From the IMG/VR virus record IMGVR_UViG_2734482581_000010: a stretch of DNA of 4,519 nucleotides. One strand, given 5' to 3'. Origin of the DNA: a virus (lineage: Duplodnaviria; Heunggongvirae; Uroviricota; Caudoviricetes). The position numbers and the translations under genes were made by a program. Shown here piece after piece: positions 990 to 4,519 of this stretch; the stretch's first letter is position 1; every line of letters starts with the position of its first letter. The notes beneath the pieces are model-generated. The model made no database searches. It saw only the letters and a list, made by a program, of their open reading frames with translations, and had not been told where the DNA came from.

Positions 990-1145
990 TTACTTCCTGG
1001 ATTCGTAGTCTACGAAGACAGCGACCTCCGTCTGGCCGGTTCGGATTCGTACCTCACAGAGGTCTTTCCTCGTTACCAGTGCCGTCACTATGACGGTTAA
1101 ACAGATGACGATCAGGGCGATTAACATCGCCTTTTGCTGCTTCAT
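990..1145 (-). CDS. hok: Hok/Gef-family type I toxin (51 aa, HokC/HokD-like small membrane toxin)
   Basis: Translation MKQQKAMLIALIVICLTVIVTALVTRKDLCEVRIRTGQTEVAVFVDYESRK has the single hydrophobic helix and the conserved LCE-R-R-G--EVA-F--YE core that I recall from Gef/RelF/Hok proteins. ATG at 1145..1143 is preceded by AAGGAG with a 9-nt spacer. Confidence 0.85.
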   Translation of the reverse strand: MKQQKAMLIALIVICLTVIVTALVTRKDLCEVRIRTGQTEVAVFVDYESRK

Positions 1146-1202
1146 AGCCTGCTTCTCCTTGCCTTTCGGCATGTAAGAGGCTAACCTACATGTGCAAAGC
1201 AT
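990..1202 (-). CDS. mok: Mok-like overlapping leader ORF (70 aa, in-frame N-terminal extension of hok)
   Basis: ATG at 1202..1200 with GAGG about 8 nt upstream. The N-terminal extension MLCTCRLASYMPKGKEKQA resembles the in-frame Mok leader of chromosomal hokC-type loci as I recall it. Whether it is translated is an inference. Confidence 0.5.
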   Translation of the reverse strand: MLCTCRLASYMPKGKEKQAMKQQKAMLIALIVICLTVIVTALVTRKDLCEVRIRTGQTEVAVFVDYESRK

Positions 1203-1258
1203 GAAATTGGCCTCAGATTAATGTTAAGCGTCTTGCCGGACGCGTAATGTTAACTGGG
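1194..1258 (+). ncRNA. sok: putative Sok-like antisense RNA (position approximate)
   Basis: Hok-family loci carry a short antisense RNA across the mok translation-initiation region. On the + strand there is a weak promoter-like pair, TTGCCT (1159..1164) and TAACCT (1182..1187) with 17-nt spacing, pointing into the mok start, and an imperfect hairpin TTAAGCGTC/GACGCGTAA at 1223..1246. The ends are not determined from sequence. Confidence 0.25.
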
Positions 1259-1321
1259 GCTTTTCTCTATCTGCCTTTTGGTGTTCATGCCTGAAGCAGA
1301 TAGCCTCAAGCACCCGCAGTC

Positions 1322-1372: not shown

Positions 1373-2059
1373 TCACTCCTTCTCTTCTTTACCGTAGTGG
1401 AGTTGACCAATTTTGATAAGAGGGCGTCCCTGAGATTTGCGGTGTAGATTGGTATCGCGCAGAGAATACACACAGCCACAATATTCCTGCTGATAGAATT
1501 TTTCGCGCTTGCTGATTTCAATCATACGGGACGAGCCGCCCTGCTTGCGCCAGTTATAATCCCAGTACACCATGCCCGGATAATGCGCGACGGCTCGCCG
1601 CCCACAGTCGTTAACCTGCTGCATATTTTTCCAGCGTGAAATGCCCAGTGAACTGCTGATCACACTGAAACCATTTTCAGCGGCGTACAGCGCTGTCCGC
1701 TCAAAACGCATGTCAAAACACATGGTGCAACGGATCCCTCGTTCGGGCTCCCATTCCATTCCTTTGGCTCGTTCAAACCAGTTGTCTGTGTCGTAATCAG
1801 CATCAATAAACGGCACGCCGTGTTGTTCAGCAAAGCGAATATTCTCATCCTTACGAATTAAATACTCTTTCTGAGGATGAATGTTCGGGTTGTAGAAAAA
1901 GATGGTGTAGTCGATTCCCGAGGCCTGAAGCGCCTCCATCACCTCACCGGAACATGGAGCACAGCAAGAGTGCAGTAGTAGTTTGTTTGCCCCGTTTGGG
2001 AGCTCCAATTTGGGCCGTTTGAAATCAGCAACTGTCATAAATATGTTTATTGGGGTCAT
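1373..2059 (-). CDS. queH: QueH-type epoxyqueuosine reductase homolog (DUF208 family)
   Basis: 228-aa ORF with the N-terminal [10 protein letters not shown] motif, internal CTMC and C-terminal QEYCGC motifs characteristic of DUF208/QueH. No clear Shine-Dalgarno before ATG 2059 or the in-frame ATG at 2038, so the start is uncertain. Confidence 0.8.
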
Positions 2060-2206
2060 AAAAATATCAAAGAGTGTAGCATTAGAACGGGGCTATCGGA
2101 AACAGATGTGTGACTGCTCCCCGCCCTTTCGGGTGGTCTCCTGATGATTTGAGGGTGCAGAAATCCCTCCGGTTAAGGATTAAATTTTTAACAGTGCTAA
2201 ATTTAA

Positions 2207-2563
2207 TTATTCAGTTCTGGATTTTGTCGCCCTGCGTATCCGCGCTTTCGCGTTACGCTCAATCTGTATCAGCTTTTCTATATTTCTCCGCCTTTCCTGT
2301 TCCTCCTGGCGCAATAGCCTTACATCATCTGCCAGTCTGGTTTCTCTTTTTGCCACAGAGAGCATCCAGTCAAACGGCTCCACAACCGCACCGCAGATTT
2401 TACAGCGGACCTGACGCTCTTTTTCGTCAACCCGTACAGAGGCGTGATGGCAATATGGTCTTTCCGATGGCTCATAAAGAAAATTAACCTGATTACGAGG
2501 GTCATCCTCTTTTACCGGAAATAAAACGATATTGCTTAACTCATCTTCTGGTTTTATTTCCAT
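2207..2563 (-). CDS. hypothetical protein with Cys/His cluster and basic coiled-coil-like C-terminus (119 aa; alternative ATG at 2620 gives 137 aa)
   Basis: ATG at 2563..2561 is preceded by AAGGAGAGGAG. Translation has YCHH...(11)...CKIC, a possible zinc-binding site, followed by a charged, heptad-like segment RLLRQEEQERRRNIEKLIQIERNAKARIRR. The upstream ATG at 2620 abuts the stop of the preceding gene and has a poorer ribosome-binding site. Confidence 0.55.
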   Translation of the reverse strand: MEIKPEDELSNIVLFPVKEDDPRNQVNFLYEPSERPYCHHASVRVDEKERQVRCKICGAVVEPFDWMLSVAKRETRLADDVRLLRQEEQERRRNIEKLIQIERNAKARIRRATKSRTE

Positions 2564-2620
2564 GCTCCTCTCCTTTGATGCGAATGCCAGCGGTAATTGA
2601 AGCCTGATAGCTAATTTCAT

Positions 2621-3043
2621 TCACAGTATCGCCTCCTGAAAATTACCCTGATAGAAAGCCAGTACACGCTGCATAGCTTCGCTCTTCCGGCACTCGCGAC
2701 AGATTATATTCAGGCGCCTGTCGTAGCGGCGTATTTCTCCGTCAGGTAATGACCAGATAAGGTCCGGATCAACAACAACCGGTTTCCTCACCTTTACTCT
2801 CGAGAGTTTTTTGCGGGCGCTTTGCCAGTCCTTGCGAGCCTGTTCAGACGGGAATAAGCCGTAGCCAGAATTATATACATCACCACTTGCGACCAGTTCT
2901 ATGCATAAGCGACCGACAGACGCACGACTGATACCTGTTTCATCTGACAACTGCCGAATCGTGACCCGACCGTCCTGATGCACGAGTTCCACAATTCGCG
3001 TCTTCAGTTCTTCCCGCTGTTCGGGAGTAAAAGGTTTCGCCAT
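2621..3043 (-). CDS. hypothetical protein with N-terminal helix-turn-helix-like segment (140 aa)
   Basis: ATG at 3043..3041 with AGGAGG 4 nt upstream, 14 nt after the DnaC-like stop. The segment VTIRQLSDETGISRASVGRLCIEL looks like an HTH recognition unit. Family not recognised. Confidence 0.6.
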   Translation of the reverse strand: MAKPFTPEQREELKTRIVELVHQDGRVTIRQLSDETGISRASVGRLCIELVASGDVYNSGYGLFPSEQARKDWQSARKKLSRVKVRKPVVVDPDLIWSLPDGEIRRYDRRLNIICRECRKSEAMQRVLAFYQGNFQEAIL

Positions 3044-3057
3044 AAATCCTCCTGAAA

Positions 3058-3711
3058 CTACTTAACAACCCTCGAATGGCTAACATTCGGACGCCAGCTC
3101 TCCCAGTTAAAATTCACCCAGCGCCCGNNNNNNNNNNNNNNNNNNNNNNNNNNNNNNNNNNNNNNNNNNNNNNNNNNNNNNNNNNNNNNNNNNNNNNNNN
3201 NNNNNNNNNNNNNNNNNNNNNNNNNNNNNNNNNNNNNNNNNNNNNNNNNNNNNNNNNNNNNNNNNNNNNNNNNNNNNNNNNNNNNNNNNNNNNNNNNNNN
3301 NNNNNNNNNNNNNNNNNNNNNNNNNNNNNNNNNNNNNNNNNNNNNNNNGATAGCTGCCGCTAAGTGATTCTTCCCGGTACCAGGTTTTCCGCTGAACGCA
3401 AAATTTGTACACCCGGTCATCAGTTCATCGGCGATGGATTTCGCCTGGCTTAACGCGTATCGCTGGCCGTCGTTCTGCACCTGGTAATTCGCAAACGAGC
3501 ATTTACGGTGCAACGGCTGGATGCCTGAGCGATTCAGAATTTTTTCCACCCGCAACTGGCGATTCAGGCGGTTGATCTCCTCGCTACGTTTCTGGCCTTC
3601 AGCAAGTTGCCACTCGCGCCACTCCGCTACCGTTCTGAATGGGGCGGTTACATGTGGCGGGGTCAGTCGGCGGATGCGTTCCAGAACGCCGCCTGTCGCA
3701 ATATTTTTCAT
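3058..3711 (-). CDS. dnaC: DnaC-like replicative helicase loader (AAA+), phage-type; CDS interrupted by the N gap
   Basis: The N-terminal 121 aa align with my recollection of E. coli DnaC (NRSGIQPLHRKCSFANY vs NRSGIRPLHQNCSFENY) and include Walker A FSGKPGTGKNHLAAAI. The C-terminal WVNFNWESWRPNV matches the DnaC tail WVIFNWDSYRSRV. The middle of the gene falls in the 221-N gap, so length and frame across it are not real. Confidence 0.85.
   Translation of the reverse strand: MKNIATGGVLERIRRLTPPHVTAPFRTVAEWREWQLAEGQKRSEEINRLNRQLRVEKILNRSGIQPLHRKCSFANYQVQNDGQRYALSQAKSIADELMTGCTNFAFSGKPGTGKNHLAAAIXXXXXXXXXXXXXXXXXXXXXXXXXXXXXXXXXXXXXXXXXXXXXXXXXXXXXXXXXXXXXXXXXXXXXXXXXXGRWVNFNWESWRPNVSHSRVVK
3128..3348. 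other. run of 221 N (assembly or scaffold gap, or masked region)
   Basis: Directly visible as n characters. It lies inside the DnaC-like gene. Confidence 0.98.
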
Positions 3712-4110
3712 GGTCCGTTACCCCCTGAAGCCTGGCGGGATCGCACTGTCCGGCAACGAGACGGTGTTAACCTGTCGGAGCAACGTCTCAGGCCGAACAC
3801 CTTTCGGCGCGAACAGGCCCTGGTATTCATTGGCGATGCTGTGTCGAATCACCTGCTCAGGTGTAAAACCCTGCTGACGGAATTTTTCCAGTTCCCGTAT
3901 CGCCCCGTTAGCGCCCTGCTCCGTTCGAATCGGTTTTCGCAATGCCTGTCTGAACCGGACCCACTCATGCCAGAGTGTTTCCGGCAACCAATCGGGCAGC
4001 TCAATAGCCTCCGGCTCGAATTTTTTAGACGCTCGTTTTTGGCGAGGGGGAGATCAGTATTTAGATCTTCCTCTTCCTCTTCCTCTGGTAACGCTTTTTG
4101 ATCCGTTTGT

Positions 4111-4129: not shown

Positions 4130-4318
4130 CTTTTCGTTTCAGTTCGCGTATTTTTGTTACTCGCTCGTTTGTAACCGCCCGTTTTTTTTAGAGCTTTTTC
4201 CGTTATGACGTTCAAAGTTAGGTAGAGAAAGCCCTCCGTCATTTTCGACCAGCCATCCAACCTGAATTAACGCATCAGCAAAACCAGACATAAAAGTGAT
4301 GCGATCTATTGCACTTTT

Positions 4319-4339
4319 TGTAACGCCGCGAGCGTTACA
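4319..4339. repeat. 21-bp dyad-symmetric site TGTAACGC-CGCGA-GCGTTACA (second copy of the same motif)
   Basis: Perfect 8-bp inverted arms with the same GTAACGC-N5-GCGTTAC core as 4111..4129. Related GTTAC-N10-GTAAC at 4156..4175 and a TTAACGC half-site at 4267..4273. Confidence 0.45.
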
Positions 4340-4394
4340 ATCTGCATTACCGTCTATCATTTGTTGATCCGCCCATGCCCAGAAGCGAATAACC

Positions 4395-4519
4395 TGAGGT
4401 AGCCTGAGTTTAACGGACACTCCTTCCTGAAATAGAATGGCATCAGAAGGAGCTAATAATGAGCAGAAAAACCCAACGTTACTCTAAAGAGTTCAAAGCC
4501 GAAGCTGTCAGAACGGTTC
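4395..4519 (+). mobile_element. left end of an IS3-family insertion sequence (partial; continues beyond the window)
   Basis: Terminal sequence TGAGGTAGCCTGAGTTTAACGGACAC starts with TGA and has GGACAC at positions 21 to 26, the same layout as the IS3 left inverted repeat as I recall it. It is followed 64 bp later by an OrfA-type start. Confidence 0.75.
4459..4519 (+). CDS. IS3-family transposase OrfA, N-terminal fragment (continues beyond the window)
   Basis: ATG at 4459 preceded by AGAAGGAG with a 6-nt spacer. Translation MSRKTQRYSKEFKAEAVRTV matches the N-terminus of IS3-family OrfA proteins; I recall this exact start from an IS600-like element but cannot verify it. Confidence 0.8.
   Translation, partial: MSRKTQRYSKEFKAEAVRTV

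Follow-up and report, generated by a model that had tools for sequence, protein, structure and literature searches.

We analysed a stretch of 4,519 nucleotides (hereafter, the window) from the caudoviral record IMGVR_UViG_2734482581_000010 of IMG/VR, and in it two small genes, gene A (2621-3043, minus strand) and gene B (2207-2563, minus strand). The explanation that we favour, with slightly better than even confidence, is that they are two separate accessory genes of a Rac-like, defective prophage of the lambdoid kind, both in its early-right (pR-type) operon; gene A is a homologue of the Ren protein of phage lambda and gene B a free cassette. The source prophage would probably belong to Shigella or E. 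coli, and the two genes would adjoin through a shared mosaic stretch just 3' of the replication genes, not as parts of one system. A preliminary description, made from the letters of the window, had reported two linked small genes on the same strand after a DnaC-like gene, and these are indeed present as intact minus-strand open reading frames (ORFs) of 140 and 118 residues within 2207-3043. Conservation of the two proteins is far above chance; about 1000 contigs each carry the exact protein sequences of gene A and gene B, mostly under the labels Shigella sonnei or S. flexneri.

Co-occurrence of gene A and gene B

The pairing of gene B with DUF977, the Pfam family of gene A, is facultative and lineage-specific, and this result is robust. 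It was read from two samples from IMG/VR and, in addition, from genome contigs and annotated phages. Each sample consists of the 80 best hits of its scan, is redundant and stems almost entirely from Escherichia and Shigella, and in the rough fractions obtained in this way, 48 of 101 copies of gene B stand directly after a DUF977 gene. In another 34 copies the DUF977 gene lies 0.6-3 kb upstream, with Ea22-like and other small genes between, 14 have no DUF977 gene within 2 kb or more upstream, and five could not be assigned. Seen from the other side, 81 DUF977 genes have gene B as the direct next gene in 41 cases and within 2 kb in 10, whereas 26 have none within at least 2 kb. Among the gene B homologues outside Escherichia and Shigella whose contexts were examined, none has a DUF977 neighbour. 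The two-gene unit of the preliminary description is thus largely contradicted by its own co-occurrence pattern, and a dedicated two-gene system is not supported.

Several points weigh against the explanation that we favour, beginning with the narrow and redundant sampling just described. Where the genes adjoin in Escherichia and Shigella, the junction is always the same, with the same frame and a single stop. Phage vB_EcoS-640R1 is one carrier of the adjacent pair. In the window, the spacer of 57 nucleotides (2564-2620, minus strand), which contains the ribosome-binding site of gene B (AAGGAG, 2570-2575, minus strand), is in frame with both genes, and one TGA (2621-2623) interrupts the common frame. 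Four database clusters (P0256, P0257, P0261, P0262) even hold DUF977::gene B read-through fusions of 278 residues. Gene A is also 45 residues longer than Ren. From the shared junction, the frame and the fusions one could argue that in prophages of Escherichia and Shigella a real functional pair exists, such as an anti-defence or exclusion module or an effector and its regulator, and that a winged helix-turn-helix protein and a zinc-ribbon protein would act together in it. The frequent direct adjacency, the lack of a terminator- or promoter-like site between the genes and the intactness of both in a prophage with a broken replication initiator would agree with such a pair. Nevertheless, we regard a functional link in this lineage as unlikely, given that each gene is common alone and that the association was not seen in the contexts examined from other genera. 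Furthermore, each of the fusion clusters consists of one sequence, and the fusions may therefore be point mutations of the stop codon. Finally, neither protein has a meaningful match in PADLOC: gene A gave weak matches only, through its winged helix, to Csa3 and CARF regulators (E 0.0017 or worse), and gene B gave none. The exclusion or anti-defence function proposed at the outset has accordingly no direct support for gene B; for gene A it would come by way of the homology to Ren alone.

Returning to two separate genes as the preferred explanation, its practical consequence is that a false lead is removed: a Ren-family gene and an independent cassette should not enter screens for defence or anti-defence systems at the operon level. 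The findings leave the current understanding of phage biology unchanged.

Relationship of gene A to lambda Ren

According to the preliminary description, neither protein could be matched to a family, which holds for neither of them: gene A falls into DUF977 and PHROG 142 and gene B into PHROG 1621. The match of gene A to Pfam DUF977 (PF06163) has an E value of 1.1e-33 and 116.5 bits, against a cut-off of 22.1, and aligns residues 1-136 with positions 1-134 of the 134 in the profile. PHROG 142, annotated as 'Ren-like exclusion protein', is matched at 2.7e-44, and lambda Ren itself falls into the same PHROG (1.6e-41). In the Pfam scan lambda Ren reached no DUF977 score. By BLASTP, gene A and lambda Ren share 60% identity across the C-terminal 20 residues (E 3e-7; NIICRECRKSEAMQRVLAFY in gene A, NLVFKECRQSAAMKRVLAVY in Ren). 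When the DUF977 profile was aligned to Ren with hhalign, the score was 95.2% with an E value of 2.5e-8, residues 15-132 lying on Ren 5-93 with 89 aligned columns, and among 15 nin and exo-xis proteins of lambda the profile matched Ren alone (4e-9). Because of the matches to DUF977 and PHROG 142, the profile alignment to Ren and the position behind the loader gene, gene A is classified as a long-form homologue of lambda Ren. The ren/nin position in the lambdoid early-right operon, which had been assumed from gene order, was confirmed.

The similarities to Ren, a protein of 96 residues, are not restricted to the common PHROG and the nearly full-length profile alignment. Both proteins have a winged helix and a C-terminal xECRxSxAMxRVLAxY motif, and both genes stand directly after a helicase-loader gene in the rightward early operon, the lambda ren gene after P. 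However, in gene A the winged helix is set apart from the C-terminal motif by about 45 extra residues, which form a helix and a basic linker, and there is a second cysteine that gives a CxxC; the upstream loader of gene A is DnaC-like, whereas that of lambda ren is P. Between gene A and the DUF977 family there is no difference, but this family name carries no function.

The protein of 140 residues had been called HTH-like, and this was borne out by matches of residues 11-59 to the Pfam models HTH_24, IclR and MarR and by the AlphaFold (AF2) model, in which residues 1-82 form a winged helix-turn-helix with pLDDT above 90. It is followed by a flexible basic linker (residues 83-95) and by the C-terminal segment 96-135, PDGEIRRYDRRLNIICRECRKSEAMQRVLAFYQGNF, which is nearly invariant and the most conserved sequence of the family (alignment A3), although this part was modelled with low confidence. 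Across the sampled loci the C-terminal 45 residues of DUF977 proteins are almost invariant, and the N-terminal winged-helix half exists in at least six sequence types, which co-segregate with the upstream gene (loci L005-L096 and L188-L263). The N-terminal type of gene A has a DnaC-like gene upstream in 33 of 33 cases. The upstream ORFs of 147 sampled DUF977 genes form five sequence clusters: one DnaC-like and two O-like, assigned by matching representatives to reference proteins, and, as judged by eye, one P-like and one of 256 residues with a YdaW-like N-terminus. Variable N-termini in front of an invariant C-terminus suggest either a recombination breakpoint inside the DUF977 gene or co-adaptation with the replication module.

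What does gene A do? Mutants of ren are reportedly excluded by Rex, as Toothman and Herskowitz are said to have found in 1980. Gene A may likewise protect the phage from abortive infection of the Rex type. By extension from Ren, it is also expected to work at the phage replication complex or together with it; Ren is described as likely involved in replication, and an interaction with Rex proteins was seen in a two-hybrid assay (bioRxiv 10.1101/2021.04.19.439022). The DUF977 family is large and has a member in most genomes of E. coli, and its link to lambda Ren by profile evidence provides a genetic test, the complementation of ren, for a protein without an assigned function. The idea that both genes are candidates for an undescribed function therefore holds for gene B, whose family is without a described function, but not for gene A, which belongs to the Ren family.

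Two names that are attached to the position of gene A should not be taken as hints to its function. YdaW of the K-12 Rac prophage (b1361) occupies the same slot and belongs to PHROG 630, and some phage records label the slot 'YdaW family'. Homology of gene A to YdaW was rejected, since BLASTP gave an E value of 0.054 over the helix-turn-helix only and hhalign, in which YdaW served as negative control for the alignment to Ren, gave 0.9%. It was reported that ydaW blocks the toxin RcaT of retron-Sen2 (bioRxiv 10.1101/2020.06.22.160242), but since K-12 YdaW is not homologous, this result does not transfer to gene A. Phage records also name the orthologue of gene A LygF; this clue was dropped, as LygF is merely a locus name in Salmonella genome reports. 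Literature searches on DUF977, on PHROG 1621 and on the RefSeq accession gave nothing relevant.

Family, anatomy and neighbours of gene B

The longest ORF of gene B extends over 2207-2620 and would encode 137 residues. The start was assigned to the ATG at 2561-2563, which is preceded by AAGGAG, is common to all homologues and is also used in a RefSeq copy with 99.7% identity. Counted from this start, gene B encodes 118 residues, not 119 as first described.

Gene B matches PHROG 1621 at 3e-56, with residues 1-117 on positions 1-120 of the 134 in the profile; its matches to PHROGs 8538 and 4865 are weaker. Each of the three is annotated as 'unknown function'. PHROG 1621 was also matched by 41 of 41 diverse gene B homologues. 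A search of 1.84 billion cluster representatives with the gene B profile retrieved 1619 proteins at E<=1e-3, of which 268 reach E<=1e-10. Close homologues are found in Enterobacterales only and are all titled 'hypothetical protein'. Gene B is an ordinary member of a phage family that is large and catalogued but so far unstudied. With at least 1600 sequence clusters the family is spread over lambdoid, Mu-like and environmental phages; it has neither a Pfam entry nor a known structure, and no structural relative was found. Environmental members of 173-186 residues have a C-terminal extension of 50-70 residues, which the Escherichia clade lacks.

Searches for more distant relatives gave little. 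No Pfam match of gene B is above threshold, the best being the TFIIB zinc-ribbon model PF08271 (21.5 bits against a cut-off of 29), and no match was found in NCBIfam. Structural searches revealed no significant neighbour; the best Foldseek hit was 1pft, a TFIIB ribbon, with an E value of 0.16 and a TM-score of 0.21 on the query. Against sequences of the PDB, the gene B profile had only a coiled-coil match to EzrA (E 1.5), and Pfam scans of 41 distant family members gave scattered coiled-coil noise only. Compared by hhalign with the 15 lambda nin and exo-xis proteins, gene B reached 60% with NinF over a zinc knuckle of 20 columns and 5% or less with the others.

Conservation was read from 35 close (alignment A1) and 41 distant (alignment A2) homologues. 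The zinc-ribbon core comprises residues 38-57 (2393-2452, minus strand). C38, C54 and C57 are invariant, and H40, R50, L98, E102 and R108 are nearly invariant. Of the CHH...CxxC cluster noticed in the preliminary description, C38, H40, C54 and C57 are therefore conserved, but H39 is not. The family signature can be written as [VI][VI]xFP ... CxH-x13-CxxC-xxxDPFD ... LKRxERNxKARxRRA. In the AlphaFold model (mean pLDDT 75) the N-terminus, which is acidic and contains the [VI][VI]xFP motif, is poorly ordered, and the zinc ribbon has a beta-hairpin at 43-54. According to DSSP, the ribbon is followed by one single long helix, residues 63-117 (2213-2377, minus strand), with pLDDT 92-95 for residues 81-110. 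Family-wide hydrophobic residues recur in it at positions 77, 81, 84, 88, 91, 95, 98, 105, 109, 112 and 116, in the 3-4 spacing of heptads; the conserved glutamate at position 102 is the sole break in the series. Residues 98-112 carry the family-wide L-K-R-x-E-R-N-x-K-A-R-x-R-R-A, including the conserved ExNxKxR motif, and the last 28 residues have a net charge of +8. A charged, coiled-coil-like tail, as had been proposed, is thus indeed present.

From this anatomy, gene B would have a small zinc-ribbon head. Because of the heptad pattern and the charge, we infer that the helix is a coiled-coil stalk, which would make the protein oligomeric, and that the basic, conserved C-terminal helix with the sequence ERNAKARIRR may bind nucleic acid or possibly another, acidic partner. 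Synthesis of the protein would belong to the early phase of infection or induction. Our best guess is that gene B is an oligomeric nucleic-acid-binding early protein. PHROG 1621 is well-defined, very widespread and structurally simple, and with its strikingly conserved basic helix it is a reasonable first target for biochemistry.

The N-terminal zinc ribbons of TFIIB share with gene B a small beta-hairpin zinc knuckle with CxxC as its second half, but the ligand spacing in gene B is C-x-H-x13-C-x2-C. The CHC2 zinc fingers of DnaG primase have the ligand order Cys-His-Cys-Cys, as has gene B, but no match of gene B to the zf-CHC2 model was found at E<=1. After the ribbon, gene B has one long helix, whereas cyclin folds follow in TFIIB and the primase domain in DnaG. 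A zinc finger of the DksA/TraR type, with four cysteines and flanking helices as in RNA-polymerase binders such as lambda Orf73, was rejected: zf-dskA_traR is absent from the Pfam hits at E<=1, the ligands are Cys-His-Cys-Cys, and there is one helix, located after the finger instead of before it. With the small proteins of the lambda nin region (NinD, NinE, NinF, NinH) and the exo-xis region (Ea8.5, Orf60a, Orf61, Orf63, Ea22), gene B shares neighbourhoods and small size, but no homology beyond the zinc-knuckle signal of NinF.

The neighbours of gene B are various, and among them are genes of the Ead/Ea22 type. At least 28 of the 101 copies of gene B stand directly after an Ead/Ea22-like gene, typically with an overlap of 23 nucleotides. 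The gene B of Stx phage ArgO145 is an early-left gene beside Ea22-like genes, among them that of gp18, with no DUF977 there. In such DUF977-less phages about 29 nucleotides next to gene B (2564-2592 of the spacer) travel with the gene B cassette; the Stx-phage matches stop at query position 493, which is window position 2592. Enterobacter phage Tyrion has the same order, an Ea22-like gene followed by a gene B homologue with 33% identity. Moreover, in-frame Ea22-like::gene B fusions of 127-264 residues were found in at least nine database clusters, on chromosomes and a plasmid (P0002, P0004, P0043, P0122, P0263-P0267), and they outnumber the DUF977::gene B fusions. It is tempting to speculate that gene B partners the Ead/Ea22-like coiled-coil proteins, which belong to the early-left region and shift lambdoid phages to the lysogenic side, or is a detachable C-terminal module of them, and that the copy in the window, which still has the 29 upstream nucleotides of the Ea22-linked cassette, lost its partner by recombination. 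For Ea22, a coiled coil in the centre of the protein and an effect in favour of lysogeny are described (PMC10834534, PMC7093339), which would fit. However, many homologues have no Ea22-like neighbour, whether they stand ahead of Q in the nin region, in Mu-like contigs or before TerL, and against lambda Ea22 the gene B profile found a generic coiled coil only (hhalign 1%). A partnership with Ea22-like proteins therefore seems improbable to us. Independently of this question, the prophage contigs L021, L032, L066, L188 and L208 carry two gene B-type genes at a distance of a few kb. In L021 and L032 either gene has a separate Ea22-like gene before it; in L066 one is after DUF977 and the other after an Ea22-like gene.

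In phages of Erwinia, Pantoea, Photorhabdus, Klebsiella-type and other enterobacterial hosts, the gene B homologue follows NinG, RusA, YbcO, DUF968 or DUF7740. In these genera it lies between the junction nuclease (NinG/RusA) and Q, a slot that in lambda is filled by ninH and ninI. In seven enterobacterial clusters outside Escherichia, gene B comes first and the Q antiterminator gene follows, either directly or with one small ORF between them, and the Q genes concerned belong to three unrelated families (PF03589, PF06530, PF06323). Among the Mu-like contigs, two have the homologue after GemA or Mor, and one has it upstream of a Mu-type transposase. Three environmental phages have longer homologues of 182-186 residues directly before TerL or one gene away. 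In contig L100 (1060-1608) and in the contig of P0258, where a DUF5681 gene is found two genes upstream, the homologue overlaps the start of TerL; in L097/L098 (6001-6561) one gene of 260 residues stands between the homologue and TerL. These homologues near TerL have an extra C-terminal helical region and could be a packaging-related subfamily. For gene B of the window, an assignment as terminase small subunit was not adopted: the E. coli clade lacks the C-terminal extension and is located in early regions, and in both contigs with the homologue directly before TerL a separate DUF5681 gene is also present upstream.

Although the position before Q, the vicinity of Mor or GemA and of TerL and the weak likeness to the TFIIB zinc ribbon could be taken to mean that the gene B family regulates or assists the early-to-late switch (late transcription or packaging) through an action of its zinc ribbon on DNA or on RNA polymerase, we hold this to be very unlikely: the slot before Q is the end of the nin region and may be inherited by position, the window copy and most copies of E. 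coli are about 2.7 kb away from a Q-like gene, one Mu-like homologue lies in the early region upstream of the transposase, and the TFIIB match scores under the Pfam cut-off and has, with Foldseek, the E value given above.

Taken together, Ea22-like genes, junction nucleases, Q, Mor and terminase as neighbours hint at DNA transactions or at developmental timing without discriminating between them. A less probable idea is that the gene B family represents a class of early phage proteins that has not been described so far and has one conserved molecular target. If so, the nearly invariant basic helix and the N-terminal [VI][VI]xFP motif would be the contact surfaces, and the recurring neighbours would point to a role in the decision between lysis and lysogeny or between early and late development.

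Outside the expected hosts, gene B was seen at 95-97% identity in a 3-kb contig of a metagenome-assembled genome labelled 'Collinsella sp.' (L089) and in a 233-bp contig labelled 'Ursidibacter maritimus' (L093). This prophage DNA of the E. coli/Shigella type is most likely an assembly or binning contamination.

Layout of the window and state of the prophage

On the minus strand, the order in 5' to 3' direction is: fragments of the replication initiator, helicase loader, gene A, gene B, queH, hokD/sok, a PHROG 340 gene and a DUF1367 gene. The DnaC/IstB-like loader gene (3058-3711, minus strand) is of the ydaV type according to the annotation of a 99.7%-identical record; its middle is masked by a run of 221 N (3128-3348). 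Its stop is separated by 14 nucleotides from the start of gene A, whose Shine-Dalgarno sequence AGGAGG, read from the sequence, is located at 3048-3053 (minus strand), 4 nucleotides before the ATG. The next gene 3' of gene B is queH (1373-2059, minus strand), which encodes epoxyqueuosine reductase (Pfam QueH, 1.9e-65); both flanks are thus as they had been named. Further downstream follow a hokD-type type I toxin gene within 990-1315 (minus strand; Pfam HOK_GEF, 1e-22) and the sok antitoxin RNA at 1140-1315 (minus strand), an Rfam match with 117 bits against a cut-off of 59. From the loader gene to queH, no promoter-like or terminator-like sites were found on the coding strand, which fits co-transcription in an early-right operon.

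Positions 2100-3127 are 99.7% identical to a Rac-like prophage in two FDAARGOS chromosomes labelled 'E. coli'. There, RefSeq names the genes 'ydaV: ATP-binding protein', 'DUF977 family protein' (423 nucleotides) and 'hypothetical protein' (357 nucleotides). The right end of the window (4396-4519) is the terminus of an IS600-type element (IS3 family), which truncates the 5' end of the ydaU-like replication-initiator gene. The latter is present in two fragments (4157-4420 and 3718-3987, minus strand). Compared to an intact copy (L001) it has indels at 4044/4045 (-10 nucleotides), 4066-4071 (+6) and 4182-4183 (+2), and it is therefore a frameshifted pseudogene. The prophage is defective, though gene A, gene B, queH and hok remain intact.

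The order DUF977, gene B, queH and hok is repeated in 14 sampled loci. In other lineages, small genes similar to those for gp14-16 of ArgO145 occupy the place of queH.

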